Part shown: positions 1,267 through 55,795 of the stretch, in pieces
Position numbering within the stretch: the first letter of the stretch is position 1
Layout of the letters: the number at the start of each line of letters is the position of its first letter
Assembly (NCBI GenBank): GCA_000004985.1
Contig: GG738872.1
Origin: Naegleria gruberi
Taxonomy: Eukaryota
Length of the DNA: 64,000 nucleotides
Direction: 5' to 3' (one strand)
The notes under the pieces: model-generated
Database searches by the model: none
Told to the model about the DNA's origin: nothing
The model's input: the letters and a program-made list of their open reading frames with translations, nothing else
Program-made: the position numbers and the translations under genes

Positions 1267-1807
1267 TTTCTCTTTCTCTTGTCTTTATTCTCTCTATATA
1301 ATAATAATTATAATAAATTGATTTAAATTGTCTCTTGTTATTTACAATAAAATTGATCGGAATGTGTAGTGAGTATCAAAATATCATAAAATCCACAATG
1401 TTCTTCTATTCCTACTTTGTTATTGCTCTGTGATCACAAAAGTTTTGCTTTTTTCGCTGTTGATCAAAAACAAATAACAATTCCTATTGTCTGTGTCTTG
1501 TTATTTTTTTCTATTTTTAAACTTGGAGATGGAATTTTCCTAAGTTCGTATGATTACTACTTGGTATTGTTGAATTTAAATTATTAAATAACGTTAACTT
1601 TGAAAAATTAGTAATAATGTATGTTTAACATTCCGATAATTTAGTGTTTCATCTTTCTATCAGGAATATAGAAATCTTGCAATGGTGGCTCCAATCTTTT
1701 TCCGTGTTGCCTGATGATAAGTTTTATTTTAGATTGGATCCACTTTTAATTATTTAAAAAAAAATAGCTTAACACCTCAATCAGTCAATCTCAACCGTTT
1801 CTTGAAA
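1267..1807. promoter_or_regulatory. Divergent intergenic region shared by the RCC1-like gene (minus) and the UvrD-like helicase gene (plus).
   Basis: A 540-bp AT-rich non-coding stretch lies between two divergently oriented start codons (1266 minus, 1808 plus). No ORF or RNA gene was recognised in it. Confidence 0.3.
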
Positions 1808-20400: not shown

Positions 20401-23400
20401 TCTTTCCTTATCTAATTGACAAACCTTATTAGCTGCTTGACATGGACGAGTTGAATTACATTCACTTTGACAAGTATTTACAAAGTCACTTGTGTAATCA
20501 GAGACACAGATACCCTTACTACATTGATAATCACCACTACATTCAGTTTGGACACAAACTTTGGACCAACATTGTTTGAATCCCTTCAAGTAACAATCAG
20601 AGTTGACTAAACATGGTTGATTGGTACATCTACCACCTCCATTGCTAACATCACAATATGGCTTATTAGAAGGACACTCAGAATCATACATGCATTCACG
20701 AGTACAGAGTCCCGATTTACATGTTGGTAAAACTGCATAACTGCAACCAGCATTTGATGTACATTTGATTGGGAATTGCACACAAGTCTTTTTAGTTCCA
20801 CTGTAAATGTTAAAATCACAAACATCAGTCAAAACACCATTTTTAACAACACCAATACAATCACGATCAGTATCACATTCAGGAACACATTTAGAATTCT
20901 TACAAGCAGTGTATCCATTTTCAGTACATTCACTTCTTAATTTACAAGATTTTGGTTCACAAGCATTGGATGTAACATTACACACTGGTTTACCAGCAAC
21001 TGAGCTACAATCAGAATCTTTCAAACATTGTGGAACACATCTTTGATAAGTAGCTTGGCCGCTCACTAAATTACATTTAGTTTTACCAAATTTAGAAGCA
21101 CATTGAGAATCACCTAAACATTCAAAGGTACAAACTCCTTGAGAACCACAGAATGAATAACCATTTTCAGAACAATCACCATCAATAGAACATGGTTTAG
21201 GAACACATTTTCCAATATCAACATCACATTTCTTTTTAGAAACAACTCCAACACAATCAGCATCTTTCACACACTCAGGAACACACAATCCCAAAGTAGC
21301 ATCTTGCTTAGTTGAACAGATAGGTCTATTAGTATATTTGGCAGCACAATAAGAATTATATGAACACTCAACGTCACAATATTTTCTGCCTCCCATATTA
21401 GATCCACAAAAAGGGTATCCTTTAATTGTACAATTGGCACTATCAGTACAAAAACGGACAGTACATGTGGCAATTGATGCATCACATGAAGAGGTAATTC
21501 CCTCACAATCGGCATCTTTCTTACAACCTTCAACACATCTATTAAGGGTCATGTCATCCTTCTTGGAACAAGTGTTCAATAATGGATTTGCACTCGATAA
21601 TTGACAGTCATTGTTGGAGCTACATTCATCTTTACAATACTTGTAATATGGATCACACTTGCTATATCCCTTATATGGACAATCAGTGTCATTGGAACAA
21701 ATCTTCTTCTCGCAAACTCCAGTAGGACCACAAACTTTTCTAAAATCTTTAGTACAATCACTGTCAGAGGTACATTCTGGTCTACAATAACAATCTCCAT
21801 TCGTACAGAGACATTCAGTATTTGTGGCATAACGACCGCACGGAGAAATTGCGGGATAACAAGGGACTTTAGAACATTTACCTCCGGAACCATTAGTTAT
21901 ACAAGATGGTCTTCCATAATAACCATTACAATCTGCATCATTGCTACATTCAGCATTACATTTTCTATATTTGGAAGTTTCATTCTTATTGGAACCACAA
22001 ACTGGGAAGTATTGATTCTTACAATCAGAGTTGGAAACACATTCATAACCACAAGTTCCATTTGAAGAACAAATTTGGAAACCCTTAGAAACACAATCAC
22101 TAGTTGTGGTACAATTGACTGCTTGACACAAACCACTTGTCAAATCACAAACTGGTTTGAGTTCATCCAAGCAATCAGAACCACTCTTACATCTCAAAAT
22201 ACAATTCATTCCATCCCATGCATAATCAGGAGCACAAACTGAACAAGTCAATCTGTCACTAGCACAAACTTCACAATTGTTTTTACCACTTTCACATGAT
22301 TCAACACATTTGTGATATTCCTTAGTATTTGAAGAGGACATTCCACAACGACTGTAACCAAAGAGCTTACAATCATCATGAACCATACAATCAACATCAC
22401 AAGTTCCATTTGAATTACAATTTGGATAACCATATGGAGCACAATCAGAAGCAGTATAACAGCTGACACCAACACATCTGAAAACACTAGTGTCACATCT
22501 TGGTTTACCACGAGATAAAATACATCCATCATTATCTAAACATTCCTTATTGTAACAACGTTGATAAGTTTGAGGATCTTTAGAGTTAGTTCCACAACTA
22601 GTTTTACCAAATTTGGTACAATCGCTGTCTACTGAACATTCAATAGAACATCTCTTATACTTGGTTGGATCACTCTTATCATTATTACAGTAAGGGAGAT
22701 TGGCTGGACAATCAGCGTTAGTCAAACATTCGAATGCACAATTTCCATCAAGTCCACATTTAAAGAAACCTTGAGCTTGACAAGATTCATTCGAAGTACA
22801 ACTAGTTCCAATACAATATCCATTAACCAAATCACAATTTGGCATGGTTTCAGTACAATTCAAATTACTGGTACATTTTTTCTTTTCGCATCTAGCTCCA
22901 AAATAGGAATCTGTGCAATTACAAACTTCTCCATTTAAGGTATACAAACATTCGCCACCATTGACACAGGTCAAGGTTGAACATTTCTTCAAATTTTCAC
23001 AGTTAGTTCCTTCATATAACTTGGTACAGTTACAAGCATCTTGTGAAATACATGATCCTCTTCCAGAACAAACATTTCCATTATTGGAAGGTGTTCCATG
23101 ACATTTTGGAATACATTTTTCATAACTGATACAAGAACCTCCATTACAAACAGCTGGATCAGTAGAATTTAATCCACCACAAGTTGGAATTTGGCATTCT
23201 TCTCCAACATATCCAGTTGTACAATTACACAAATTAGGAGAAACACATTTACCATTCAAGGAACAAGCTGAGTTGCCAGTCTTTCCAAAACAGATTGGAA
23301 TAGAACAGTTACTACCAATGTAACCTTCATTACACGTACAAACGTTTCTCTTGTTACAAGCACCATTACCTGAACAAACATTTGAACTAGTACTGTTAAT

Positions 23401-26400
23401 ACCAAAACAAGTAATAAAAGTATTTACACATTTACGGTATTGAGAAGTAACATTACGAACAGAACCACAAGTAGTTTCATAATGCTCGAGAGTTGGACAA
23501 TCTTGATCGACCAAGCATTCATAAGAACAGAAACCATTCAAACAAACTGAAAGTCCATTCGAATAACATTGAGTTTCATTCGAACAAGGAACAGCAGTAC
23601 AACTTTCTTGAACACAAAGTGGTTTTGTAACGTTATAACAATGAGAATTAGTGAGACACTCCTTTCCACATTGTTTGTAAGTGAATCCATTTGAAAATTC
23701 ATGGCAATAGGTCTTATCTTGATATAACAAGGCACAATCATCGTTAGTTTCACATTCGAAACCACAAGTACCATCATCAGAACAATTAGAATAACCAGTA
23801 ATATTCAGAGAGACACAATCAGAACTAGAAGAGCAAACATTTGGAACACAGGTGTTGTTTTGACAAGAAGTTTGATACATTTCATAAATTAATGGATTCA
23901 AACAATCACTATCTAATGCACATTGCTTAATTTCACATCGGTCTCCAGTAAATAAAGAACCACATTTACAATATTCAGTACCGTTTTTGATTCTACAAAT
24001 ACCTCCATTGTCACATGTCTTTGTGCATGGAAGAACTGTTTGACATTGCGTTCCAGTGAAGGATTCACCACATTGACACTTGTCTAAACCGATACATGCA
24101 CCATTTCCGTTACAAGCAGTATCAATTGATTTACCAAAACAGGTAAAAACTTCACAATCAGTTCCAGAGGATCCTGTAAAGCAGCTACATTTTGGATCTT
24201 CAAATTTAGAACTACTTGTCAAACCAGTTCTACAGTAACCATTTCCACTACAAACGCTACTGTCATTTGCTAGCTTTCCAGTACAATTAACTTGACATGC
24301 ACTTAAGGAATTTCCAGCTGTTTTGAAAGAATATCCAGAACAACTAATTGGATAGAGTTCATAAATATTACTTCCCATAGAGTAGAAAACAGATGATGTC
24401 TCTCCAAGAGCAAGAGCTGAAGGTGTGCCTGCTAATGATGAAGCAATTGAGTAAGGAATTGTTGACATTCCAATAGTATATAACATAATGTTCGTACCAG
24501 CGACAATGTAAAGAATACCATTTTTGGTTACTTTCATATATTCAACAGATGATGAAGTGGTGAAACTGTAATCAACTGAATTGTAACCCTTATAGGCAGA
24601 GACAGTTGTTGTGTAGGACACAAATGGTTTTCCATAAATGGCCATTCTACCACCAGGTTTTCCACTAAGAACTCCACCAACAGGACCGTCATTGAAAAGT
24701 GAATCAACATTACCATATTGCACGTCACCTTCTCCTGAAAGACGTCCGGCAACATAAACGACAGTATCATCTTCATTCAATGTTATAGAGCTGGTTCTCC
24801 AAAAACTGAATTTTCCACCTACTCTGCTCTTGGTAACCAAATCATATCTGAAAACGAAACAGGAAGTTGTAGAAAAGTCCTTCCTGACAGAATAATACAT
24901 GTATCTTCCATTCTTACTGATGGCCATATTGTAAAATGTGTAACTGGTTGTTAGAATTAAGGTTTTGGTTCCACTAGCAGTCATTGAAACAATTTCGGTA
25001 TCGAACATTATATAATAAACACCATTGACATATGCCATGTCAACAATGGTGGCACCAGCACTCAATACTTGTTTGGAGGCATAATTGTAGTAACCAGTAT
25101 GAACTGGCCAGTATGTTGGTAAAACTTGACATGTGTTAGGACCTATACATTTCAATCCATCACAAACTGAACCAATATTTGAAGAATTACTCAAGACTCC
25201 ACTGCAGGAGGTAACATCACAATTAGATCCAATCCAACCTTCCTTACATTCACAATTGTTCATTCCGACACATTTACCATTTCCAGAACAAGTATTCGAA
25301 ACTGTTTTAGGAATATTAGAACAACTATAAATATCACAAGCATCACCAAAATATCCACTCTTGCATGAACAATAAGGTTTCATAACATTAGTAATACATG
25401 TACCATTTCCACTACAGACATTGACATCTGATGCTAAAATACCATTACATTGTGGTTGGGAACAATTACTGCCTGTCCATCCTTGAGAACAGGAACAATT
25501 ATTATCAATACAAACACCATGACCAGAACAAACCAAAGTATTTGTACTAAGTAATCCATCACAGGTGTATGTACAAACTTCAGATGAATTAATGTATAAA
25601 CATTTGGCAGTTTCTGAACAGTTAGTATTGACACAAGGTTGTGAAAATTCACAATTACTTCCAGAACGACCAGTGTTACATTTACAATTATTCATTGAGG
25701 TACAAACACCTTCTCCAGAACAAACACCTTGACTAGAAGCTCCAACACCATTACAAGTGTGCTCACAAACATTTGGTCCAATACACTTGACATTAGTACC
25801 GTATTTGGCACATCCCAATGTTGATGTAGCAGAAATTCCAGAACATGTGAAATTGAGACATAATGAACCTTCATAACCATCGAAACAAGAACACTTGTCA
25901 GTTCTGACACAAGTACCATTTCCACTGCAAACACTTGGATTTGATGAGTTTTTACCATAGCAATACTTGAATTCACATTCAGAACCTGTATAACCAGAGA
26001 AACATGAGCAAGCAGAATATAAAGGAGTTGAACTAGTTGACTGTCCAAGTTCTGCATTGAAAACTGTTACAGTTGAGCCAACATTAATTGCACATGATCC
26101 TCCTCCATTACAAACATTAGAATCGGATGATATTAAACCATTACATGTAACATCACATGTTGTTTGATCCACTACAGCATTTTGTGAACATCCAGTGACT
26201 GTAAGCTTTCTTACTACATTACTAGAATCAGTAAAGTAAATATTTCCATATTCATCAAAAGTCATTTCATAAGAGTAAAGTTGAGCAGAAAGAGCTGGAC
26301 CGTTATCACCAGTATTTCCATTGGTACCTATACCTGCAATTGTCAATTCAGTGTTAGGAATATATTTTCTAATTGTATTACCGTAATAGGTAAATACTTC

Positions 26401-29353
26401 TCCTTTTGAATTGAACTTGAAGTAACTATTTTTAAATATGTAGGAAGTAACTGTGGTTGCTGTGGATGGTGTCTTGGTTACATCCCAAGATTTAAGTGTA
26501 TTCGCATTTAGATGATATATTTTACCATTATAGTAATCAATTGTGCCAGAAGTTATAGTTTTATCACATGTCTGAGTTAATGAAGGAGGGACAGTACAAA
26601 AACCTAAATTTGAAGACAGGAAGTAGTATGTGTCAGTTTCAGGGTTGTAGGCCAATGAATACATGGAATAGTAGCTTGTCATTGTTGTCAATTTTGTAGC
26701 TGTTCTACTGGCAAATGAATATCTATAAATATTGTTTGCAAAATCAGTTCCTTTACACATGAAAGCAAGATCTCCATTCTTATCAACAATTAAATTAAGC
26801 ACAGGTTCACAAGAAAGGGTAACAAGTGTGTATATTAAACCATTACTAATGGTTCTAATTCTCTTGTTGTTGCCTTCTGAAACATAAACTGAACCATTCT
26901 TGTAAACGATGCCTTGAACACCATAACCAACAGCAGAAATGGCTGGTTGACCATCTCTTGTATAAGATAAAGTACCTGTTCCCGCAATGTTTGTAACTTC
27001 TTTGGTCAATTGATTGTAGGATTTTACATAATTTCCATTGATGAAAAGGTATTCACCACTCTTATAGGATGGGGTAATAAAAGAACTTCCAGTTGGAATT
27101 GAGAAAATTGTTCTAATGATATTATCCTGGAGGGAAATTGATCGAACATTACCATTAGAATCTGAGAACATGAGACTGCTACCATCTGTTGAAGCATATA
27201 ACGTTGTAATATTTGAACAAGATGCATTAAGGGCTGGACCTTCATCTCCTAGAACTGTAGCTGTTGGATCACAGGCTAATCTTCTTACATAATTACTACC
27301 CCCAGTAGATTCCATTTTGAAAATAACTCCAAAGTTGACAAAGTAAACAGTGTTCATTATTGAGGTAATTAAGGAAGTTGCGCAAATATTAGCATTCAAA
27401 GCTAATTTATCCTGTACAGAACTAATACCACTTCCACAAGTACCAGATCCAACATAAGTTGATACACCATTGGTAGAATCATCAATTTTGAGGATCTTGT
27501 TGCCTTCAGTTACAACAAAAATCAGAGACGAATTTCTATTGGAAGCGATCATTTTGATTGTTGTACCAGAAAGCATGGTTGCATATACTTCACCTGTGGA
27601 AAAACAAGTAGCACAAGCATATTTAACGATGGACTTTGCAGGGTACGCCTTGTAAATGGTGTCTATGGTGGCCACATATGCAAGATTCTTTGAGACTGTT
27701 AAAAATTTACAACTGGAACAGGAGATTGTTTTCAATACGCCTGCTACGATTGGTTTTACATAGTTATCAGAATCGAGAATATAGGTTGCTTCAGGAGTTG
27801 CATAAGCAGCAATAACACCAGTCATTTTCACTGTCAATGGATCGCCAGTGGTTGGTTCACTGGTATATGAGAATGCAACCTTGTCAATTTTGTAATTAAA
27901 CAAGGAACCACCACACTTTCTAAAATCTATACATGTTTCACATTTTGTTCCATTGAAACCTTCATTACAAACACAAGTATTTTCACCCATACATGTTCCT
28001 TTACCAGAACAAACTTTAGCACTGGTTTCAACAATACCAAAACAAGTATTATGTTTTTGTGAACAATTGGATCCATAATGTGGAGAGGTACATTCACAAT
28101 TATCTGTTGCAATACACTTTCCATTACCAGAACAAACATTAGAGTTATTAGAAAGAATGCCATCACATCTATGAACACAAATTTCTACACCTTTAGAATA
28201 AGAACATTCATTACATGCGGAACATGGTCGAGAGAATTCACACTCATCACCAAATCTACCATTGGAACATGAACAATTATTTTCAGCAACACAAACACCT
28301 TCTCCAGAACAAACATTTGGACTAGATGCTCCTACAGCATAACATGTATGTTCACAAACATCTGGACCAATGCACTTAACTTCTGAACCGAATTCACTAC
28401 AAACATCTGGCAATGCTCCAGAAACATTGAAGCATATATAATCTGTACATTGTGGACCAGACCAACCTTCATTACAGGAACAATTATTTGAGGAAATACA
28501 TGTTCCATTTCCTCCACATACAGTTGGATCACTATCTGCCTTATTAAAACAGTGAATAGTTGTACAATCAGAACCATAAAATCCTGAATCACAATTACAT
28601 GTGGTACTAGTATTTGAAGTAATAGCACAAATACCATTACCACCACAAACAGTAGGATCTGATTCAGACAATCCATTACAGGTAATTTCACATGTTGTAC
28701 TATTGACATATGAGTTATCCATACATCCAATAACAGAGAGCTTTCTAACAACATGATTAAATCCTTCACACATGAAAATGTCACCAAATTCATTAAATGC
28801 CAATGATCTAACACCATCAACAAGAGCTTTTGTGGAAGGTCCACCATCACCTGAATAGCCATATGCATCTCCACCAACAAGTGTAAATTTTCCACCATTA
28901 GCATACTTTACAACATCACTAGAAGAATACAGAAACATTTCTCCTCTAGAGTTGAATTGAATACCAGAATAGGAGGATGAAACAATCATAATCTCTTGAG
29001 TTGAGAATGNNNNNNNNNNNNNNNNNNNNNNNNNNNNNNNNNNNNNNNNNNNNNNNNNNNNNNNNNNNNNNNNNNNNNNNNNNNNNNNNNNNNNNNNNNN
29101 NNNNNNNNNNNNNAAGAGTTCCATTTGATCCAATTGACAGAATAGATGGACCATCAGTTACATAGAGAGTCCCATTCTTGTAAACCACACCACCACCCCA
29201 TGCTGTTTTAGTTGTTGCAATGGTTGAAATATTGAACTTGAACATGGTACCACCACATTCGTAATTGTTTTCACACGCTTCTTGTGCTCTTACCTTGCAA
29301 TAGCAAAGTAAGGTTACCAAAGCAAAAAGGAGAAATTGTAGAATCCTTTTCAT
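14500..29353 (-). CDS. Giant (about 4,950 aa) single-exon type-I membrane protein. Order of regions: signal peptide, NHL beta-propeller repeats, tenascin-type EGF arrays (several clusters), a long run of about 40-aa Cys-rich modules, a REJ-like module, a Ser/Thr-rich stalk, one TM helix, and a short cytoplasmic tail.
   Basis: One uninterrupted frame runs from the ATG at 29353 to the stop at 14500; it is broken only by the 104-N gap at 29010..29113, and the frame jump across the gap is an artefact of its arbitrary length. The signal peptide is MKRILQFLLFALVTLLCYCKVRA. NHL-type repeats are visible (YGYSGDGGPSTKAL...FGDIFMCEGFNHVVRKL; GDNGPALSAQL...GNIYFTDSSNVVRKL). Dozens of 6-Cys EGF units are present (e.g. 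CSGNGKCIATDNCECTSPHYGSNCSQ). Cys-rich modules of the form CxxDxDCxxxxxxxCxxxxxxC repeat many times. The C-terminus is IIAPKPDMNLVALILLAIPVFALVAVVIAVIYLLKERSRNKNHV... (TM plus tail). Confidence 0.8.
29010..29113. other. Assembly gap of 104 N inside the 5' part of the giant gene.
   Basis: A run of N. The reading frame differs before and after the gap, so the real gap size is not 104. Confidence 0.95.
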
Positions 29354-37983: not shown

Positions 37984-39414
37984 TTAGTTATTGTACTCAT
38001 CGTAGAATACTGATTCTCTATTGACAAGATTTAAGGTAGCCTTTGGCTCTGTCGAAATCTCTTCCAGGCAGTAATCTTCCAATACATCTTCACTGAAATA
38101 GGAAAGAATTAATTCTTCACACAATTCATCACTTTCAAATTTTTGATCCCCAGAAATGAACAAATGTTGAACTGAGGAGTTTCTAAGGAAAGATGTGTTC
38201 TTGTTTTCCTGTAAATAGTCAATCATGTGTAATGGAGTGGTACTGTCAAGTACTAAATGGGTCAAGTGATTAACAGTTCTGAGATGTTGAAAACATTCAC
38301 CACGTATGCTCGACAAATCACCAGTAATATCCAAACATTCCAAATATTCGAGTTCTTTGAATATTCTTGAAATAATATTGTCTGAGAGGTGGGACTTTAC
38401 TTCCGTATTTGCTTCCGTATTTGCTGTTTGTTGTATGTCGATAATAAGAGTTTTGAGATTTTTCATTTTGAGAATATGCTCAATAATTTCTATATCCAAA
38501 TTGGTAGATTCCCTTATTTCTAGGTATTCAATTTGTTTAGGATAGAATGATAGGAACCAATTTCCAAAAATCAAATTGCATCTCTCCATGACAACTTTTT
38601 TCAATTTCTTTGATTTAAAAAGTGTTGATTTGATTGTTTTAGGATTTGAAGTATTGGTTGTAGAAAAATCACAATATGTTAATCCAGACAAGTAAACTTC
38701 TTCCAATTGTTGAAAATGAAAATCTGTTGGGACAACATATCCTTTTGCTGGACCGCACAGCATATTTTCTGAACTATTGACAGTTAATCTCTTTAGAGTT
38801 TTGTATGTTTTCTTTTTGATTGACTCTAATTCAAGTTCTAATATTCCTGTTTGTTTGAGTGTTAATTCTTCAATGACAGGGCACATTGATAATACTTTAG
38901 AAATAACATCTGCAGAGGACGAATCAACATGATTTGCTCTCAAAATTTTCAAGTTTGGCAATTTTCTAGTTTGCAATAAATACATGTAATCAGTTACCAT
39001 AGAATCATTACCATCAAAATCAATTATCAAATTATACCAATAATCACCAGTATTTTGGATAATCTTTTTGATTCTTTCCACATCTTTCACATCATACTTT
39101 AAATTAATATCAATCACTCTTTCAACACGTCTCTTCTTTCTTCCCAAATCAACAAATGGCCTCTTGAAATGACAATATGCAACATTTCTCCAAAGCAAAT
39201 AATCATTCGGATCTTGATCTTGATTCCCCTGATGATCATCAAATGGCAAAATAATTGAATGAAAATATTTACAAACTCTTGCCAAAGGAATCAACTCGAA
39301 TAATGTAACAAACGACAATATTGATGTAATATTCTCGATCGGGAGATTCAACAAATGTACATCATGAGATGATCTTTCTGATGATGAATTTTCCCCTTCA
39401 TGTGATGCCGCCAT
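37984..39414 (-). CDS. F-box / LRR protein, single exon, 476 aa.
   Basis: ATG at 39414. The F-box-like motif is LLNLPIENITSILSFVTLFELIPLARVCKYFHSII. It is followed by LRR-like repeats (LKILRANHVDSS..., LEYLECLDITGDLSSIRGECFQHLRTVNHLTHLVLD). Confidence 0.65.
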   Translation of the reverse strand: MAASHEGENSSSERSSHDVHLLNLPIENITSILSFVTLFELIPLARVCKYFHSIILPFDDHQGNQDQDPNDYLLWRNVAYCHFKRPFVDLGRKKRRVERVIDINLKYDVKDVERIKKIIQNTGDYWYNLIIDFDGNDSMVTDYMYLLQTRKLPNLKILRANHVDSSSADVISKVLSMCPVIEELTLKQTGILELELESIKKKTYKTLKRLTVNSSENMLCGPAKGYVVPTDFHFQQLEEVYLSGLTYCDFSTTNTSNPKTIKSTLFKSKKLKKVVMERCNLIFGNWFLSFYPKQIEYLEIRESTNLDIEIIEHILKMKNLKTLIIDIQQTANTEANTEVKSHLSDNIISRIFKELEYLECLDITGDLSSIRGECFQHLRTVNHLTHLVLDSTTPLHMIDYLQENKNTSFLRNSSVQHLFISGDQKFESDELCEELILSYFSEDVLEDYCLEEISTEPKATLNLVNRESVFYDEYNN

Positions 39415-39598: not shown

Positions 39599-41351
39599 AT
39601 GCAAAAGCTCATTTCGACTTTTTTTCGATCATCTCCCGAATCAAGTGCCAGCTTTGACACTTCAGAAAAACCAAAACCAAGACTTCATAACCAAGGTGAT
39701 TCCAAGGCGATTGTATTCCTAGGAACAGGTGGTTCAGGAAAGTGTACGTAAAAAGTTTACAACAATTATTTATTCAACAATTTTTAATTTGTTTTGTAAA
39801 TGTTAAATAGCTGCAATTTTTGTACAAATGTTTATAGAGAAGGATGATTTGGAAAAGAGAAGAACCATTCTACATGAAACAATTTTGGAATATTTTGACA
39901 TGGTTTCAATTAATACTTCTTTTGGGAATGCTCAAGCTTGCACGAAAATGGATGAATTTTTCGAGGAATATTCTAGATCGGGACCAAAGACGCTATCGGC
40001 AAGCAAGTTTTGGACTCAGGATTTTGCAGATAATTTGTTCGAGTTGTTTTACGATTCTGGATTTCAAGATTTGATTCACCAAAACCGTTCGAAACTCTAT
40101 TTACACGAGAATATTGCCTATTTCATGAGGAAGAAGAATTTTGAGAGGATTAAACACTTGTCCAAACTCAACATTGAAGATTTATTGCGAATAATGATTA
40201 AAACCTCTGGCATCTCATCATTTTCTCCAATTAAAGGAATAACCCTGTGTGATACTGGTGGACAAAGAACTGAAAGAAAAAAATGGAATAAGATTATAAG
40301 TAATCATGGCAGCAATATTGTAGAATGTCTGGTTGTTTCATTGGCAGAGTTTGATGAGGTTTGCTATGAGGACGATGTCACTAACAGGTATGAGGAAAGC
40401 TTGACTTGTTTTAGGGAGGAATTTGTGAATACAAAAGACTTGACCATTCTCTTTACAAAATATGAAGTGTTGAAAAGGAAGGTTTCTGATGGTGTTCGAT
40501 TTTCGGATTATGTTTCAGAGTTTAGTGGAAATGATTCGAATGTAGAGGAAGTTAGAGATTTTATTATTGGAAAGTATGTGGAATTGGATACGGAGAAGAA
40601 GATTAGAAAGTTTATTGTGGTTAATTCTGCATTTGATCATTTGGAATTGCAACAGGTTTTTAATGAAATTACCGAAACTAATTCATTCGATTCATATTTT
40701 GATGAATATTTGAAGAAACTTGATTTGGAAAAGCAAACTGGTGGTGATGTTGGAGAAGGAATACATGAAAATATTGAGAAGTGGACAGCCAGACCATTAT
40801 TGGAAGATGAAATTCTACAAATTTCCAACTTTTTGGAACTTGATGACTTGCTTAATATGAACCAAGTTTGTAAAATGTGGAATCATGTGACTTATAGAGC
40901 ATCTCTGATATTGAGAAGACCAAATCTCGATTTGTTTATCAATTCAGGTTATGAATTTGTTAAGAGCTTGACTCTTCAATCGAGATTTGTACAGAAAAGA
41001 CACATTGAGGCTCTTACTCAACCAAAATTTGCACAATTGGAATATTTAGATTTGCGAAATAATTATCTATTGAGACAAGAAGATTTTGATAAGTTATTTG
41101 GAAAAACTGATTTTAAACATCTAAAAACGCTCTTGTTGGATTATGTTGCATTACAGGATTTGAAATTTCTTCAAAATTCTGCGTATTTGAGACTGCATGT
41201 TCTTTCTTTGAATGGAGTGAAAGGAATTAGCACAGAACAGGTTATTCAGCTCATCAAGTCTCCAAGCTGTCAAGAACTGAAGGAGGTCAACACTAAAAAT
41301 TGCCCAAACACTAATACAGAGATTCTCAAAAAAGAGTTGAAAGTTCCGTGA
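39599..41351 (+). CDS. Fusion protein: heterotrimeric G-alpha-like GTPase domain (Ras-like plus helical domain) followed by an F-box and leucine-rich repeats. Exons: 39599..39743 and 39811..41351.
   Basis: Exon 1 ends in the P-loop (KAIVFLGTGGSGK|S). The intron at 39744..39810 (67 nt, GTACGT...AAATAG) is phase 1. Exon 2 has the G-alpha helical-domain signature (YLSKLNIEDLLRIMIKTSGI), which aligns with the switch-I region of Gi-class G-alpha subunits. Switch II is DTGGQRTERKKW. Then come a canonical F-box (PLLEDEILQISNFLELDDLLNMNQVCKMWNHV) and LRRs (LEYLDLRNNYLL...LRLHVLSLNGVKGI). The NKxD and TCAT guanine-specificity motifs are not recognisable. Stop is TGA at 41349-41351. Confidence 0.7.
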
Positions 41352-41519: not shown

Positions 41520-42086
41520 TTCACATTGAATATTATGCTTAAATGCTCCGGCTTAAATACCACAATTTTGACAGCTCACACAAGTAAAATAGATTTTAAG
41601 ATTTAGTAAAACTTAAGTACAAGCTATAGCTTTGAAAATACATTTCAAAGGTCTGTATCTTTAGCGCTAAAGATCTTTCCCTTGTCCCTTCTTGCTCAGA
41701 CTTGTAGGAATCTAATTAAGGTGGGCTGTTAGTTGGTTGATTGGATTGTGAGTTTGATTTTGTTGTGATTGTTGAGACATTTTTGTTTGGGCAATTGATG
41801 TTGATAACATGTTCCACTACAACAGTTACACAACCAAAAGTAATTAAATATTCACCCAATCAAATAATTCCCTATTTTACAAATCTCTTCTGTTTCAATT
41901 TCCAATTGTTGCTTGGACACAACAATACAAATTTAATCACAAATTGTAAACTTGACACACGAACTGTATTCTTTTGCGTAAAAGGAACTTCCATCTCATT
42001 GAATAGTCATCGTCCTTTCATGTAAATTAGGCAGTGATCTACTATTCAAATTGCTAAAAAAAATAAAAAACAACATAACCATCAAG

Positions 42087-43991
42087 ATGGCGAAACTGTT
42101 GCAACAGCACAATCATTTCATTAGCTCATACGTGCTGATGGTCGCGATTTTATTTATTGTCGTTGTCTTGATGATGAGTGGCCAAGACATGAATCAGGTC
42201 GAGGCAAAAATACAACTTCAAACAACCTGTTGTTGTCCTGCACAATTTAATTCTACCATTGTATTGAGTGGTGGTGGTGAAAAAGATGTGCATGTTGTAA
42301 ATCCATCACACGATTTGATATTTAGCTATTCTACTTATGAAGCTCTTTCATTGCCAACTTATGAATGGAAATCCACTGATATTGATTTGAGTGGTTTGGC
42401 TTGTAATAGAAGTTTCCTTATAATTCCCAAGACTAAACTTATGCTATTTGAAAAACAATTAACTGTTCAATTGATCATTAGAGAAGGTTGCTCAAAGATC
42501 TCTAATCCTTCAATTTCCTTCACTTTGAATACACCTCCAAGTGTTGGAACCTTGTCAATTACTCCAAGCAGTGGTGTTGCTTTGGAAACTGTTTTCACCT
42601 TGACATGTAACGGTTCTTCAGTTTCTAATAATCCTCTTACCTACAGATTCTTTTACTTGGACGAATCCAATTCAGTATGGAAGCCACTAAACGAAAGAAA
42701 TCAAGATTCAACTCTCAGTTCCACTCTCCCTCTTGGATCCAATTCAAGCAGCACACAAGTTTTGAATATCAAGGTTATTGTTTATGATTCTGTACTTGTT
42801 TCCTCTGAAAAGCAAATGACTGTCATTGTCTACAAACCTTCCTCAATCAGCAATACTACACTGTCTGACATGTTACAAAAGGCCAGCTCCAAATCAGTTT
42901 CGTCCTCCTATATTTCATCCACTTTGGATGCAATTACATTTTTTATTGCATCATCCACCAATGTCCCTAGCAATATGAAACAAATTATGAGTGCAATCAA
43001 TGCAGTTGTCGTTTCCTATGTTGATACTCTTCAAAATATTGGTCAATTCACATCTGATAATGGTATTTCCACTGTTTCTGCCATCTCTTCAATCAGCTCA
43101 TGTGTGGAATATGTTCAAGATGCAGAAAGTACATCTTCTATCATTAAGAAATTGAGAAATTTGACAGAGGAAGCAGCAACTAGCAGTTCTTTCACCTTGG
43201 ATGATGATTATTTGTATCTCATACAAAAGACAGCAAACAAATTCCTTCTCCATGTAAAATCATCCAATGATTTAAAAGAAATTGAAAATATTTACCCATT
43301 AGTTGGTAAATCTTTCATGAAAAAGTCTGTTCCAGATATGCCAGCAATTACCTTTTCTAATACCATTCAAATATGTTATTGGAGAAAGGTATTGGTTTCA
43401 TCCTTGACAAGCATTGTTGGAGAATCCATTGATAATAACGGAAATAAGATTTCAATACAATCTGGATTAGCAACACACCCGTCAGTTTCACAATTGAACT
43501 ACATTACATTAGCTTTGAAAACTGAATCCCCTACCGACAGGTTAATCTTTGACTTTTCAATACTTGAATTTGATAATGTCTCATCAGATAAGAGCCTCAT
43601 ATCAGTATTCTTTGATACCACTTTTCCTTTCTACTATTGTTCCTATTGGGATAATGCATGGAATCAGACAGTGGCTGGAGGTGCTTGTAATATTAATTAC
43701 TCAGGAAAAAGTTCAATTGGCACCATCTCTGCATCAATTGAAAAGACTGGTCGATTTTCCATTATCCGTGATCCAGGAGAGGGAGGAGAGAGCTTTATCA
43801 GGAATAATTATGATTTGTTTGCCCTATTTGCATTGTTGATTATTCCAATTGTGTGCATAATTATTGTATTATTGGTGGCCATTTACTTGTTGAGAAAGAG
43901 AAAGATCAAAACCAACTTGGAAAATAATGATGTTGATATTGTGAATGTGCGTGAACCTAAACAAACACTTATCAGTAATCAACACTTTTAA
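42087..43991 (+). CDS. Single-pass type-I membrane protein with a REJ-like (polycystin / receptor-for-egg-jelly type) module, a Ser/Thr-rich stalk, a C-terminal TM helix and a short basic tail. It is a paralogue of the C-terminal part of the giant protein.
   Basis: ATG at 42087; [30 protein letters not shown] is a signal or anchor. The segment [27 protein letters not shown]...[59 protein letters not shown]...NIKVIVYD aligns residue-by-residue with the giant protein segment YAWSSSDLDLSSV...ADITFTVNAPPTVGILEVNPTTGVALKDEFQIKCGNGWYDPQVPLSYEFLYKLTTDSTW...DIKVVVYD. The C-terminus is [32 protein letters not shown]. Confidence 0.65.
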
Positions 43992-44069: not shown

Positions 44070-44459
44070 ATGATATCACGAATTTCTATATCAAATCATA
44101 AGTTAACATCCCTCTCTCATTGTAAGGCCTCTCTCAACTGTTCAAGATTAACCTTTCCAGCCGTAATAGTATCAATTAGTACTGACCTATCAGAAAGAGT
44201 AATGATATCTGCCTTAGTTGCCGATCTCACTTTCAGTAAGGTGGAAGGAACCCTCTCCTTGCCAATTCCAACCACTGTCAAAGCTGAAGGAAAAGCTGTA
44301 ATTGACTATGATAATGTGGTCTATATGGTTGCAGCAGGCATTCTTGCAGTCTGGTTAACTTCAACTTTGGTGGGAACTTTTTTGATTGTCTTGGTCAGCT
44401 TGATTGGTGCTTTGTGTTGCTACAGAAAGAGAAAGAGACTCTCTCCTATGAACAGTTAA
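44070..44459 (+). CDS. Small hypothetical membrane protein (129 aa) with a C-terminal TM helix and an RKRKR tail.
   Basis: ATG at 44070. The C-terminus is VVYMVAAGILAVWLTSTLVGTFLIVLVSLIGALCCYRKRKRLSPMNS. No conserved domain was recognised. The tail style resembles the tails of the REJ-like proteins. Confidence 0.3.
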   Translation: MISRISISNHKLTSLSHCKASLNCSRLTFPAVIVSISTDLSERVMISALVADLTFSKVEGTLSLPIPTTVKAEGKAVIDYDNVVYMVAAGILAVWLTSTLVGTFLIVLVSLIGALCCYRKRKRLSPMNS

Positions 44460-50419: not shown

Positions 50420-53400
50420 TTATTCATCATCTTCCATTGAATCAGAGTCTTCACCTTCTTCCTCTTCATCTTCGCCTTCATCATCTTCTGCTCCTTCTGT
50501 AATTTCATCACAAGACATGTCGCTCTTTGGAGCTGATACTGTTACACCCAATTCTGTGGCAAGATATTCCTTGAGTGAGGAGTAGGTCTTTAGATATCCA
50601 ATCTTTTCCAAATCATCTTTAATTGGATATTCATTTGAAATCTTTCCTGCATTATCACAAATGAACAAGGCACCTTCATTTTCAAGGAAGAGTGGCAACA
50701 AGTATTGCTTGATAACTCTCTTCACATCGCTCACTGTTACCTTTCCGATATCTTGGAGATTTTCGTAAAAGTTTCTTGGTCCATTAAACAAGGTGTTGGT
50801 TAAGAATCGAGAGTAGGCAGCTGAAATAATAGTCTCTGCATTATTCAATTTTTCAACAACTGTGGTTGCCTTGGCAGGTTCGAGTGCAGATTCATTAAGC
50901 TTCAAGACATTTTCACTTGGTTCTTCATCAGAGCAAACAGCTTCAATAATTGCCTTTGATTCAGCATAGGCCTTGGAAACATTTCCAACACGAGACAAAT
51001 ACAGGCCTACTGATCCCTTATCTACATTACTAATGATGGAGTAACCATAACACAATCCTTTACCTCTGAGTTTGACCCAGAATGGTCCTTCTTCGCCAGT
51101 CAAAAAGTTAATGGCAACACTTAGAGAATGTCTGTCATGATAATTCAAATAATCAGTAATACCCTTATGAACTTTCAAAAGGAATGCAGAATCAGTTGAT
51201 CCCATACCTAATAAAATACCTCTATTAACATGTTCGACATATTCAGTAGTTGATCTACATAATCCATTCATTGATTGGACTCGTGCAGTAGAATCGCAGA
51301 GAGNNNNNNNNNNNNNNNNNNNNNNNNNNNNNNNNNNNNNNNNNNNNNNNNNNNNNNNNNNNNNNNNNNNNNNNNNNNNNNNNNNNNNNNNNNNNNNNNN
51401 NNNNNNNNNNNNNNNNNNNNNNNNNNNNNNNNNNNNNNNNNNNNNNNNNNNNNNNNNNNNNNNNNNNNNNNNNNNNNNNNNNNNNNNNNNNNNNNNNNNN
51501 NNNNNNNNNNNNNNNNNNNNNNNNNNNNNNNNNNNNNNNNNNNNNNNNNNNNNNNNNNNNNNNNNNNNNNNNNNNNNNNNNNNNNNNNNNNNNNNNNNNN
51601 NNNNNNNNNNNNNNNNNNNNNNNNNNNNNNNNNNNNNNNNNNNNNNNNNNNNNNNNNNNNNNNNNNNNNNNNNNNNNNNNNNNNNNNNNNNNNNNNNNNN
51701 NNNNNNNNNNNNNNNNNNNNNNNNNNNNNNNNNNNNNNNNNNNNNNNNNNNNNNNNNNNNNNNNNNNNNNNNNNNNNNNNNNNNNNNNNNNNNNNNNNNN
51801 NNNNNNNNTTGTAAATTCTTACCTCCATCACCACTATCATTATCACCTCCACAAGTGTAAGAGTTAGAAACAGATTCTCTCATGAGACTCATAATGACAT
51901 TTTCCTTCTTGATATATTGACTTGGATCCTCACCAAGTTTCATATCACATGAAAAGTTGAGAGCCAAAAACAAAGGAATGTACATTTTAAGATCGAGTGG
52001 AACATTGCTCGAGTCCATTAAACAGAACATTTCCACAAATCTCGATGCAATAGAAGTAATTTGAAGGAAGAATGGAAGTGGTGAAATGTGATCCTTCAAC
52101 TTTTCAGCAAGCACCTTATCGTATGGTGTTTGAACAAATGAAGGATTATTATCATTTCTATAGGTGGCAATGTGAATCTCCTCAATGCTGTCCAAGGTTG
52201 GGATTGGGAATTTCTCCTTGAGGAATTTTTCATCGATTGGCTTGGTATTGGCCTCTTCAGCTTGTTTGAGACGAGTTTCTAATTCTTTCAATTTGGCTTC
52301 ACCGAGTCTTGTCTTTTGTTCCTCAATTCTCTTAGTATTTTCATCGGCCATATCCTTGGCTTTTTGAGCAGAAGGAGTAGCTCTCAAGACAACATTCTCA
52401 GTGGAGAGAATGTACTTTTCAATCAAGTCCTTCCAGAATTGTTCGTCCTTCTTGGCCAACTCTTCGGAAATGAGATCAACATCGAGAACTTGTCTACAAT
52501 CTTGATTATCAGTGCTGTACAAAAAGTCCTCAATCAAGACACTAGAGAAGGTTTCATGAGGAGAGGTTTCATATGAACGCAAGCTATCCAATCTGTCTCT
52601 ATTAATGACCAACTTGAAATATTCGAGGTCAATCTTTACATTTCTCATAAAATCATAAAACTTTTCCACAATGGTATCATATCTATCTGGTTCAACATTA
52701 ATAAAACAAATCTTGTGGGTATTTTCAAAGGTTCTATCAACAGAAGCATAGACATCTCCACACCAAACATCTCCACTCTCATTCTCTATAAATTCCTTTC
52801 TAATTGGAGCAATATCACCACTAGTGAGTGCACTCCAAACAATATCCAATGCATAGGATGTTGCAAAATCCTTCCAAGGTGTTGCTCTCCAACCAATGGT
52901 AACATAAAATCCAGAATCTTCCTCATCCGATGGATAAACAATGTCTTTAGAGATTGATGAAGTCAACTTTGGAAGTGATTGCTTCCAAATATTCAAATCC
53001 AATTGTGGATTAATAGTTGGTTCTCGGTTCAATACTTTTTGTTCAATAGAATCATTAACAGAGTCAATCAATTCTTCAACAGAAGTGTTACCCACAACAA
53101 TAACATTGAAATTTTGTGGACAATAGTATTCCTTGTGGAATTGCCTAACTTTTTCAATGGTCAATTCTCTCAAATTTGAAACTCTTCCACCAAAATTATA
53201 TTGATATCCTTCACTCTTATCAAACATTAATTCATTAAATACCATATAAATTAATTCATCAGGTGCATTCTCTCTTCCGAGCATTTCATTATATACAACA
53301 CCACTATTCTGACCAGATCCATCAATGTGATGAATTTCAGTGATGAAAGCATTATCACTCAATGTAGGATATAAAATATGATCCAAATAAACTGGTAATA

Positions 53401-53710
53401 ATCTGTAAAATCCTTCCTTTCCTGCTGTTGTCAATTCATAGGTTGTATTAGTATTTTGAGTATATGCATTTGTACCTTGAGCAAAGCATCTATTTGCAAC
53501 CTTATCCAAGATACCCTTGTATGGATATTCTTCACTTCCCATGAAAATTAAATGTTCCAAAACATGAGGAATACCATCATGATCGGCAGGTCTTGTTCTC
53601 ACTGTTAAATAGGCCTTCATAATTGGTGATTGAATTTTGGCCAATGTAATCAACATGCCCGTCTTGATGGATCTATACTTGTAAATGGTACCATAATTTA
53701 AATAATCGAA
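50420..53710 (-). CDS. M16C-family zinc metallopeptidase, presequence protease (PreP/PITRM1/Cym1)-like. It is partial: the N-terminus lies in the gap at 53711..54215, and there is an internal gap at 51304..51808.
   Basis: The inverted zinc-binding motif HVLEHLIFMGSEEYP is present (HxxEH), and the following block (...GTNAYTQNTNTTYELTT) is collinear with PreP. The open frame extends upstream of the first Met (FDYLNYGTIYKYRSIKTG...) into the N-run. The ORF is about 1,100 aa and has an acidic C-terminal tail. Stop is at 50420. Confidence 0.75.
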   Translation of the reverse strand, partial: FDYLNYGTIYKYRSIKTGMLITLAKIQSPIMKAYLTVRTRPADHDGIPHVLEHLIFMGSEEYPYKGILDKVANRCFAQGTNAYTQNTNTTYELTTAGKEGFYRLLPVYLDHILYPTLSDNAFITEIHHIDGSGQNSGVVYNEMLGRENAPDELIYMVFNELMFDKSEGYQYNFGGRVSNLRELTIEKVRQFHKEYYCPQNFNVIVVGNTSVEELIDSVNDSIEQKVLNREPTINPQLDLNIWKQSLPKLTSSISKDIVYPSDEEDSGFYVTIGWRATPWKDFATSYALDIVWSALTSGDIAPIRKEFIENESGDVWCGDVYASVDRTFENTHKICFINVEPDRYDTIVEKFYDFMRNVKIDLEYFKLVINRDRLDSLRSYETSPHETFSSVLIEDFLYSTDNQDCRQVLDVDLISEELAKKDEQFWKDLIEKYILSTENVVLRATPSAQKAKDMADENTKRIEEQKTRLGEAKLKELETRLKQAEEANTKPIDEKFLKEKFPIPTLDSIEEIHIATYRNDNNPSFVQTPYDKVLAEKLKDHISPLPFFLQITSIASRFVEMFCLMDSSNVPLDLKMYIPLFLALNFSCDMKLGEDPSQYIKKENVIMSLMRESVSNSYTCGGDNDSGDGGKNLQXXXXXXXXXXXXXXXXXXXXXXXXXXXXXXXXXXXXXXXXXXXXXXXXXXXXXXXXXXXXXXXXXXXXXXXXXXXXXXXXXXXXXXXXXXXXXXXXXXXXXXXXXXXXXXXXXXXXXXXXXXXXXXXXXXXXXXXXXXXXXXXXXXXXXXXXXXXXXXXXXXXXXXXXXLCDSTARVQSMNGLCRSTTEYVEHVNRGILLGMGSTDSAFLLKVHKGITDYLNYHDRHSLSVAINFLTGEEGPFWVKLRGKGLCYGYSIISNVDKGSVGLYLSRVGNVSKAYAESKAIIEAVCSDEEPSENVLKLNESALEPAKATTVVEKLNNAETIISAAYSRFLTNTLFNGPRNFYENLQDIGKVTVSDVKRVIKQYLLPLFLENEGALFICDNAGKISNEYPIKDDLEKIGYLKTYSSLKEYLATELGVTVSAPKSDMSCDEITEGAEDDEGEDEEEEGEDSDSMEDDE
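51304..51808. other. Assembly gap (505 N) inside the M16C peptidase gene.
   Basis: A run of N. ORFs that translate as poly-X across it are artefacts. Confidence 0.95.
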
Positions 53711-54215
53711 NNNNNNNNNNNNNNNNNNNNNNNNNNNNNNNNNNNNNNNNNNNNNNNNNNNNNNNNNNNNNNNNNNNNNNNNNNNNNNNNNNNNNNNNNN
53801 NNNNNNNNNNNNNNNNNNNNNNNNNNNNNNNNNNNNNNNNNNNNNNNNNNNNNNNNNNNNNNNNNNNNNNNNNNNNNNNNNNNNNNNNNNNNNNNNNNNN
53901 NNNNNNNNNNNNNNNNNNNNNNNNNNNNNNNNNNNNNNNNNNNNNNNNNNNNNNNNNNNNNNNNNNNNNNNNNNNNNNNNNNNNNNNNNNNNNNNNNNNN
54001 NNNNNNNNNNNNNNNNNNNNNNNNNNNNNNNNNNNNNNNNNNNNNNNNNNNNNNNNNNNNNNNNNNNNNNNNNNNNNNNNNNNNNNNNNNNNNNNNNNNN
54101 NNNNNNNNNNNNNNNNNNNNNNNNNNNNNNNNNNNNNNNNNNNNNNNNNNNNNNNNNNNNNNNNNNNNNNNNNNNNNNNNNNNNNNNNNNNNNNNNNNNN
54201 NNNNNNNNNNNNNNN
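53711..54215. other. Assembly gap (505 N) between the 5' ends of the M16C peptidase gene (minus) and the cathepsin B-like gene 1 (plus).
   Basis: A run of N. Both flanking reading frames stay open into the gap. Confidence 0.95.
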
Positions 54216-55795
54216 TGGTCATTCCAAAAAACTAAACCAATCTATGATAATCAAGTTATTTACAATCAATGCAGCATTGATAAAGCCAATCTCCCACAGG
54301 AATCCCCAATTGAAACATTCAATGTTGCATTAAAAGTTCCAGATATTGCTCTTCTTAAGAAAAACAGTAAAGTTGTCCAAAAAGGAAAATGGACCTTAAT
54401 TTGGAATCAAGGAATGGAAATTCGTTTTTCAAATTTCAGATATTTTGCCTTTTTTAATTATACTATGAATGCAGAGGGAGTTTCTACTTCAAATTGTAGT
54501 AGAATTCTTATGGGTACTTATCACGATAATTCTGTGAACGCTGCCAAGTGGGGATGCTTTATTGGTGATAGGATTAAGGTGCCAAAAAGTGCTAAAAGAT
54601 TTTTGACAGATGTCAGTTTGAGTTCTGGAAATGTAGAGGGTAGATCTGAGAGAGATGATAGAAAATATGAAGATTATCAATATGTAGAAGAATTAAATAA
54701 GGTACAAAAGAGTTGGAAGGCATCAATCAATAATCAATTTAAAGGAATGACAATTGGTCAATTGAAAAGTATTTATCTCAAAAAACAAAAAAGAGTTTCT
54801 ATTGCATCCAGAGATTTTATCAACAATGAATTGAAAAAGAAAGCTACCACCCGTCATCCCTCATCTGGAGGTCAATTCATATTCAATGGTGAAATTGACA
54901 GATATGAATGGATTAGTGATGAGGAAATTTCAAAAATTCCTGAAGAATTTTCATGGGAAGATGTGAATGGTCAAGATTATTTGACCCCTGTGAGAAACCA
55001 GTACAGTTGTGGATCATGCTTTGCTTTCGGTGAGTTTCAGATTCTGTAAAACTAATATTCGAATATTATTTAATTAAGGCACCAGTGAAATGCTTGGAAT
55101 GAGAGTTAGAATTAAGAGCGGTCTTTCCAAAACCGACATATTCTCTCCACAAGCCATTGTCGATTGTAGTCCTTATTCTCAAGGGTAGGTTCAATCTTTC
55201 GAATTTCATTATTCTAAACATTTCTAATTTTGTTTTATCAAAAAACTATAGCTGCAGTGGAGGATGTGTCTATCTTGCCTCCAAATATGTACAAGATTAT
55301 GGACTCGTTCTCGATCAATGTCTCCCTTACAATGCCTCAATGAGAGTTGCCCAAACATGCACCATCAATCAACAAACTGCATGTACAAAATTGAGAGTTT
55401 CGAATTATTACAATGTTGGTGGTTATTATGGAGCTTCAAATGAATTGAACATTATGATGGATGTCTTGAAAAGAGGTCCAATTGTTGCTGGATTTATGGT
55501 TTACAATGACTTTTTCTATTACAAGAGTGGTATTTATACTCACATTCCAACAGAAAAATACGAAACTTCATCAACAGATAAGAAATTACCCAAATTTTAC
55601 TACATTAATCACACATTAATCATTTATGGATGGGGAATCGACAAGTCAACTGGTCAAAAATATTGGAATATTCAAAATTCTTGGGGATCTAAAGATTGGG
55701 GAATGAAAGGTCGTGGTCTTGTTGCTAGAGGTGATAACACTGGATTTATTGAAAGTGATGCTGAAGCTGCAATTCCAATCATTTCAAATCTTTGA
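54216..55795 (+). CDS. Cathepsin B-like papain-family cysteine peptidase, gene 1, with a long N-terminal extension. The 5' end is truncated by the gap. Exons: 54216..55029, 55079..55184 and 55252..55795.
   Basis: The reading frame is open from the gap edge. The active-site Cys block is CGSCFAFG, with F in place of the usual W. Exon 2 has the CSPYSQG|CSGGC occluding-loop region. The His and Asn blocks are HTLIIYGWG and NSWGSKDWGMKGRG. Introns are 55030..55078 (GTGAGT...TTAAG, 49 nt) and 55185..55251 (GTAGGT...CTATAG, 67 nt). Stop is TGA at 55793-55795. Confidence 0.7.

Follow-up and report, generated by a model that had tools for sequence, protein, structure and literature searches.

Two genes lying on opposite strands of contig GG738872.1 of Naegleria gruberi (NCBI GenBank assembly GCA_000004985.1) appear to end in the same membrane-proximal region, which raises the question of what this shared region is and how two copies came to stand within one stretch of DNA. 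The window analysed here, 64,000 nucleotides in length, contains a small gene (42087..43991) and a giant gene whose protein is several times longer, and an earlier note, made from the sequence alone, had proposed that both carry a cassette composed of a region resembling the REJ (receptor for egg jelly) module, a stalk and a transmembrane (TM) helix. We consider it highly probable that the cassette consists of a REJ domain, a non-canonical GAIN domain and a single membrane anchor, and that both genes belong to a Naegleria family built on this architecture. The family as a whole reflects an ordinary expansion, within one lineage, of an ectodomain architecture that is already known, here with a degenerate GAIN domain, and its annotation is poor.

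The two cassettes are homologous over their full length. When the small protein (42087..43988) was compared by BLASTP, with compositional adjustment on, to the last 1000 amino acids (aa) of the giant open reading frame (ORF), a single high-scoring segment pair of 587 columns joined small-protein residues 67-614 to residues 425-991 of that C-terminal stretch (28% identity, 48% positives, E = 1e-37). Smith-Waterman scores were set against 200 composition-preserving shuffles, and every segment scored above these controls: 476 observed versus 57 ± 8.6 for the whole small protein (z = 48.6), 279 versus 47 ± 6.7 for the REJ part (67-260; z = 34.9), 196 versus 55 ± 8.0 for the stalk (261-570; z = 17.7) and 62 versus 31 ± 4.2 for the TM helix and tail (571-634; z = 7.4). 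The motif-for-motif likeness described in the earlier note is therefore genuine homology, but it spans about 570 aa, more than double the 250 aa proposed; in the giant it occupies 14530..16230 according to BLAST and 14554..16335 according to the family profile, more than the 15100..16300 given earlier. The common motifs TxCxG, PLxYxF and VxVYD are found in the alignment, as is the LxxLIIPIV...IYLLxKR tail at both C-termini. A similar tail had also been attributed to the 129-aa ORF at 44070..44459, and this resemblance is not supported (local scores of 35 and 37 versus shuffle means of 37.7 and 38.8, z = -0.4), the common feature being a generic hydrophobic stretch followed by basic residues. 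No third copy of the cassette was found by tblastn against the whole window.

The N-terminal part of the cassette is a REJ domain, as the motif spacing had suggested. Pfam REJ (PF02010; gathering score 25 bits, profile length 452) matches the small protein with 85 bits (E = 5.7e-24, residues 71-269) and the giant with 133 bits (E = 1.3e-38, profile positions 167-422), both far above the gathering score, and it matches all 17 aligned family members. Since the match in the small protein covers profile positions 218-433, only the C-terminal half of the domain is present there. In the predicted model this half forms two beta-sandwiches (strands 58-249), for which the nearest solved structures recovered by Foldseek are tandem sandwiches of the Ig/FnIII/PKD type, e.g., SorCS2 (6fg9).

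The region between the REJ domain and the membrane stands as a homologous segment, but "stalk" in the sense of an anonymous spacer does not describe it: it is predicted to be a GAIN domain whose GPS motif is degenerate. The published GAIN fold (PMC3321182) has two parts, subdomain A with six alpha helices and subdomain B, a twisted beta-sandwich, and it sits immediately ahead of the first TM helix. An AlphaFold model built from the 17-sequence cassette alignment (A2) reached a mean pLDDT of 76.6 and a pTM of 0.72, with pLDDT of 70-92 across residues 256-561, and displays the same arrangement, namely seven helices (256-411), then a beta-sandwich (421-561) and a membrane helix (571-613). The TM segment begins at about 577, shortly after the last strand, which ends at 561, and the giant has the same layout. 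The best Foldseek match to the model is the uncleaved HormR-GAIN structure of BAI2 (8oek, E = 8.6e-9), and GAIN structure comparison gave 14.5 for BAI3 (4dlo_B), 14.1 for GPR126 (6v55), 12.6 for GPR110 (8hc0), 12.3 for Latrophilin-3 (8vti) and 12.1 for CELSR1 (8vy2). PDB sequence searches with two-sequence and 17-sequence profiles returned nothing significant, the best hit being an Ig-like domain protein at E = 0.072.

It could be argued that everything beyond the REJ domain is compositional, i.e., that a Ser/Thr-rich, mucin-like disordered spacer is followed by a generic TM helix. The stalk region does contain 25-30% Ser and Thr, a first AlphaFold model built from two sequences was of low confidence (pLDDT 36.9), and word-indexed protein searches yielded no relatives, probably owing to low-complexity Ser/Thr-rich words. 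This explanation is nevertheless hardly credible: the stalk alone exceeds composition-preserving shuffles at z = 17.7, the BLASTP match was found under compositional adjustment, the deeper alignment raised pLDDT to the range given above, and two cysteines and a glycine are invariant within the stalk. Composition-driven similarity was accordingly rejected on the shuffle z-scores, the deeper-alignment model and the structure comparison.

Assignment of the stalk to GAIN is further linked to canonical GPS motifs by proteins that bridge the Naegleria family and multi-pass receptors. The Naegleria cassette profile matches several such proteins through REJ and GAIN up to the membrane, including P0032 (E = 3e-48; at least six TM-like segments after GAIN) and P0138 (E = 9e-39; six TM-like segments, then an RGS domain), together with P0139 and P0109, the E values of these bridging proteins ranging from 3e-48 to 4e-32. 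Pfam GPS scores 25.8-42.9 bits in them (threshold 22.5), exactly where the Naegleria strands align. The stalk thus adopts a predicted GAIN fold whose last strands align with canonical GPS motifs.

The GPS region itself has changed in ways that bear on self-cleavage, which in GAIN domains needs His at position -2, an aliphatic residue at -1 and Thr, Ser or Cys at +1 (PMC3321182). With the conserved aromatic residue (Phe/Tyr) taken as the anchor at +3, the canonical CxCxH(L/T/M)↓(T/S)xF, in which the arrow separates -1 from +1, aligns with Naegleria xSxSxEK-T-G-RF; the bridging proteins carry CxSxHL↓TSF (P0032), CxCxHT↓TSF (P0138) and CxCxHM↓STF (P0109), and the corresponding columns read E-K-T-G in the small protein and S-I-T-I-Q-T-R-T-T-G-S-F in the giant. 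The nucleophile position +1 is Gly in 17 of 17 members, and position -2 is K/S/T/R/E in place of His across the family. The first two GPS cysteines (C518 and C534 in the small protein) are invariant while the third and fourth are replaced, so that the four-cysteine motif detectable by PF01825 is absent, and some members, the small protein (CSYWDNAW) among them, keep the GPS Trp. Because the required His, aliphatic and Thr/Ser/Cys residues are absent, the Naegleria GAIN domains are unlikely to cleave themselves.

A functional GAIN domain that cleaves with non-canonical residues and exposes a tethered peptide, as in adhesion G protein-coupled receptors (GPCRs) and polycystin-1, would be compatible with the retained fold and its place directly before the TM helix, with the Thr that directly precedes the invariant Gly in most members, and with the HRTG of one paralog (P0019). 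We regard it as improbable, given that the nucleophile position is an invariant Gly, that -2 is never His across the family, that both cysteines flanking the cleavage strand are missing, that a single TM or a glycosylphosphatidylinositol (GPI)-like end offers no bundle of seven or eleven TM segments for a tethered agonist, and that the known chemistry depends on the three residues named above (PMC3321182).

The predicted non-cleaving REJ-GAIN cassette is not confined to this locus. An exhaustive HMMER search over 1.84 billion representatives identified about 19 proteins, counted after clustering at 50% identity, with the full cassette at the C-terminus, all from Naegleria where the source is named, which bears out the earlier suggestion of a small family organised around one membrane-anchoring unit. 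At least 13 N. gruberi genes belong to it, namely D2VHI6 (small), EFC43684 (giant), D2W4W5, D2UYS4, D2VZI2, D2VG77, D2V7F9, D2VB49, D2VUB5, EFC49938, D2VI32, D2VB11 and D2V765, and N. lovaniensis and N. fowleri also have proteins with the cassette. Pfam scans of nine paralogs place teneurin-type EGF arrays ahead of it, and the small gene is the sole family member without N-terminal EGF modules; additional domains include a subtilase in one N. lovaniensis protein and NHL repeats in D2VB11. Three anchor types can be distinguished: a TM helix with I-(I/V)-P-(I/V)-(V/F) and a basic tail (small gene, giant and six others); in several paralogs, a hydrophobic stretch that ends the protein without a tail and resembles a GPI signal; and, in D2VB11 (P0023; EGF, NHL, REJ, GAIN, TM, kinase), a TM helix with a protein kinase behind it. 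We found no paper describing this Naegleria REJ-GAIN family.

Within this family, the origin of the small gene can be addressed by phylogeny. A recent segmental duplication of the giant's 3' end, giving a local paralogous pair, is suggested by the position of both genes within 27 kb on one scaffold and by the full cassette that they have in common. However, the two cassettes are only 28% identical, and the genes lie about 27 kb apart on opposite strands with unrelated genes between them (e.g., F-box and G-alpha). In a bootstrapped neighbour-joining tree of 549 columns from the trimmed family alignment, the giant groups with D2W4W5 and D2UYS4, which are encoded on other scaffolds, at 99% bootstrap (46-49% identity in the tree alignment; with the giant's final 1000 aa in BLAST, 53% with D2UYS4 and 50% with D2W4W5). 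The small protein forms a long isolated branch with 20-28% identity to every member and a best sister grouping of 38% support, and its best non-self BLAST match is P0012 (E = 2e-52, 31.6% identity), with the giant in ninth place. A local duplicate is therefore very improbable, and the phylogeny that the earlier note had called for speaks against that origin. As tree and BLAST agree, the two genes are best regarded as old paralogs that lie 27 kb apart by chance, the small gene being, on this comparison, an old, fast-diverging and N-terminally minimal family member.

Both gene models require correction. The small-gene ORF extends over 42051..43991 (+), and the length of 646 aa given earlier was counted from a TTG at 42051, whereas counting from the ATG at 42087, the eukaryotic start, yields 634 aa. 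The protein runs from a hydrophobic N-terminus through half a REJ domain and the GAIN domain to a TM helix, which contains the IIPIV motif common to the TM-type paralogs, and ends in a 33-aa tail in which the Pfam scan recognised no domain. Residues 12-32 are presumed to be a signal peptide or signal anchor. The GenBank/UniProt model (EFC43593.1 / D2VHI6; 600 aa) begins at Met35 and so leaves out 42087..42188; this missing segment includes the sole N-terminal hydrophobic stretch, which an ectodomain protein would need for entry into the endoplasmic reticulum. Separately, a 2282-bp N. gruberi contig (P0009, P0005) codes for the small protein's final 224 aa with two substitutions (F495I, A530V) and also for a protein very similar to the neighbouring one of 230 aa (both fall into one 90%-identity cluster); it is probably an unmerged allelic haplotig and not a second locus.

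The giant ORF comprises 4884 codons without interruption (14500..29154, -). Beyond an assembly gap at 29010..29113 (104 N), a signal-peptide exon or ORF in another frame ends at 29353 and encodes the signal peptide MKRILQFLLFALVTLLCYCKVRAQ followed by NHL-like sequence (28946..29353, -); for this reason the ATG at 29154 is probably not the true start. The protein order is NHL-like regions, many teneurin-type EGF repeats, Cys-rich repeats, a full REJ domain, GAIN and TM. The GenBank model EFC43684.1, a partial protein of 1706 aa, retains only four blocks of the 4884-codon ORF and stops 70 aa short of its stop codon, thereby omitting the TM helix. In the giant's cassette copy, the final pair of REJ sandwiches is succeeded by GAIN, which extends from about 15705 towards lower positions and has its degenerate GPS (TTGSF) near 14763; the TM helix and a basic tail of 22 aa complete the protein. 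The REJ region is longer than in the small protein, its Pfam match is also reported as two stretches, and a weak repeat with a PLSYEY motif lies upstream within it. The coordinates of both genes and their parts are collected in the table.

Table. Positions in the window of the two cassette genes and their predicted parts
Feature	Position	Strand	Basis
Small gene, predicted type I membrane protein, 634 aa	42087..43991	+	ORF; NAEGRDRAFT_68340 / D2VHI6; Pfam REJ; AlphaFold model
N-terminal hydrophobic segment, residues 12-32	42120..42182	+	sequence; comparison with P0156
REJ domain C-terminal half, two beta-sandwich subdomains, residues ~58-250	42258..42836	+	Pfam PF02010; model strands; Foldseek
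GAIN subdomain A (predicted), helical bundle, seven predicted helices, residues 256-411	42852..43319	+	model
GAIN subdomain B (predicted), beta-sandwich, residues 421-561	43347..43769	+	model
Degenerate GPS motif ending subdomain B, residues 518-561	43638..43769	+	
TM helix, residues 577-601	43815..43889	+	sequence; model helix 571-613; family alignment; tail shuffle z = 7.4
Basic cytoplasmic tail LRKRKIKTN..., 33 aa	43890..43988	+	
Giant gene, ~4,950 aa	14500..29353	-	ORF; N-run; upstream signal peptide; Pfam
Giant's cassette copy, aa 4274-4867	14554..16335	-	family profile E = 1.2e-219, model positions 2-605; BLASTP E = 1e-37
Giant REJ region from end of last EGF block, aa ~3893-4483	15706..17478	-	Pfam REJ 133 bits
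Giant TM helix LVALILLAIPVFALVAVVIAVIYLL	14569..14643	-	sequence; family profile

Two further segments of the giant attracted attention. At aa ~1750-3050 (~20005..23907, -), about 1,300 aa with 14-16% cysteine are organised into some 50 units of CxxDxxC type with a periodicity of ~25-45 aa; no Pfam family matches this stretch, which may be an undescribed Cys-rich repeat. Between EGF blocks, at aa ~3438-3560 (~18480..18843, -), a cysteine-spaced segment of about 120 aa resembles by eye a Frizzled-type cysteine-rich domain, with no Pfam match to the segment, and the UniProt name of one N. lovaniensis paralog is "FZ domain-containing".

The remainder of the window holds typical eukaryotic genes, including ORFs for G-alpha, eIF2-gamma, RIO kinase, JmjC, F-box and LRR proteins, and three of its ORFs are identical to GenBank EFC43687, EFC43688 and EFC43689. 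In the ORF at 39828..41351 (+), the G-alpha domain begins at profile position 59, such that an upstream exon may be missing; the same ORF has a weak C-terminal F-box-like match (20.5 bits, under the Pfam gathering score of 24.3) and adjoins a separate F-box gene on the opposite strand (37984..39414). Two assembly gaps of 505 N each make the gene models around them unreliable, one (51304..51808) within the M16 peptidase-like ORF 50420..53656 (-) and the other (53711..54215) within the adjoining ORF 53698..54222 (-).

As regards function, the clear signal peptide of the giant and the N-terminal hydrophobic segment of the small protein lead us to infer that both are cell-surface proteins of type I, within a family specific to Naegleria. 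The C-terminal unit that the two have in common would correspond to the membrane-proximal module of polycystin-1 and the receptor for egg jelly, in which REJ sandwiches are followed by a GAIN domain set on the anchor. The GAIN domain could then act as a rigid, disulfide-stabilised, non-cleaving stalk that sets the variable recognition modules of the N-terminal part at a distance from the plasma membrane, these modules being EGF arrays and NHL-like regions in most paralogs and only the two REJ sandwiches in the small protein. Such proteins might serve in adhesion or in the sensing of particles, prey or substrate, and any signalling would depend on proteins that associate with the TM helix and the short basic tail or, in one paralog, on the fused cytoplasmic kinase. 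We put the adhesion or sensing role forward tentatively, as one that is quite conceivable yet falls somewhat short of probable.

Several points weigh against this interpretation. The signal peptide and the location at the surface are inferred, as is the role in adhesion or sensing; the loss of cleavage is read from sequence, and an atypical cleavage chemistry is conceivable. The GAIN fold comes from a predicted model based on only 17 related sequences, and the Pfam search for GAIN that the earlier note had proposed returned nothing, as neither the GPS nor the GAIN model matches any of the 17 Naegleria members even at E <= 10. In addition, D2VB49 (P0157) and D2V765 (P0024) are named "basal body protein (NBP family)" at source, which, if the name rests on data, would imply a different cellular context; no support for this label was found in the literature.

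On a broader evolutionary scale, ancient GAIN domains have been reported in Dictyostelium and Tetrahymena (PMC3321182). Discoba is a supergroup far removed from these two lineages and from animals, and the occurrence there of REJ alongside a sequence-cryptic GAIN domain lends support to a very early origin of the polycystin-type ectodomain. A more speculative and rather doubtful extension would be that the REJ-GAIN pair is an ancient, general membrane-proximal module, possibly as old as the last eukaryotic common ancestor, that predates its coupling to seven or eleven TM segments and serves in Heterolobosea as a non-cleaving stalk on interchangeable anchors (TM, GPI signal, or TM plus kinase). 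If so, D2VB11 would be a receptor kinase with a GAIN ectodomain, and Naegleria would offer a simple system for studying the role of GAIN without cleavage or a tethered-agonist target. The present work documents the module without a multi-pass partner domain and, as far as its residues indicate, without self-cleavage, and it corrects two poor gene models, i.e., the N-terminus of the small gene and a giant annotated as a 1706-aa partial protein. It describes a family, not a new mechanism or a new kind of system, and leaves the understanding of polycystins and adhesion GPCRs unchanged; its use lies in annotation and in the evolutionary history of GAIN and REJ.

Among known systems, polycystin-1 (PKD1), PKDREJ and the PKD1-like proteins have the same membrane-proximal order of REJ, GAIN and first TM helix, recognised by the same Pfam REJ model, and P0072, a metazoan-type polycystin-1-like protein (CUB, EGF, REJ, GPS, PLAT, PKD_channel), is a significant match of the Naegleria family profile. 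The Naegleria proteins differ from polycystin-1 in having one TM helix instead of eleven and a GPS that has lost the His-Leu↓Thr triad along with half of its four cysteines, and in the small protein REJ is limited to its C-terminal half. The features that define the polycystin-1 family, namely eleven TM segments, a PLAT domain after the first and a channel-like domain, are replaced by a single TM and a tail of 22-33 aa; Pfam found no PLAT, Polycystin_dom or PKD_channel in the small protein or the giant, while all three were detected in P0072 as positive control.

The nearest overall architecture to the giant and its paralogs is that of suREJ1, which is reported (Moy et al. 1996) to be a single-pass protein with EGF, C-type lectin and REJ modules, GPS, one TM helix and a short tail; the likeness is one of layout. 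Of these features, REJ, a single TM helix and a short tail occur in both window proteins and EGF modules in the giant, whereas the Pfam scan matched no C-type lectin domain in the giant and the Naegleria GPS is degenerate. The sea-urchin protein is a receptor for the fucose sulfate of egg jelly (PMC9265791), and members of the suREJ family generally carry the GPS cleavage site (PMC4700764).

Adhesion GPCRs (BAI2/BAI3, latrophilin, GPR126, GPR110 and CELSR1) share the GAIN fold set directly on the membrane, and some animal GAIN domains are likewise uncleaved, e.g., the BAI2 structure 8oek. The differences are a sequence identity of 7-12%, the absence of a Pfam GPS match, and seven predicted helices in subdomain A instead of six; moreover, the seven TM segments that follow GAIN in these receptors give way to one hydrophobic segment, after which the protein ends within 22-33 aa.

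The closest sequence relatives outside Naegleria, with both REJ and GAIN, are P0032, P0138 (REJ-GPS-TM bundle-RGS), P0139 (RCC1-REJ-GPS-multi-TM) and P0109 (EGF-REJ-GPS-TM). In contrast to the Naegleria proteins, they keep the canonical GPS CxCxH(L/T/M)↓(T/S), and most continue into 6-9 TM segments. P0138 (L001 4585..7740, on the ENA metagenome contig ERZ28594990) has half a REJ domain, a GAIN domain with canonical GPS, ~6-7 TM segments and a C-terminal RGS domain, and by this domain order reads as an adhesion-GPCR-like receptor of a microbial eukaryote fused to an RGS domain. P0109 presents the same order as the Naegleria paralogs, from EGF through REJ and GAIN to the TM helix.

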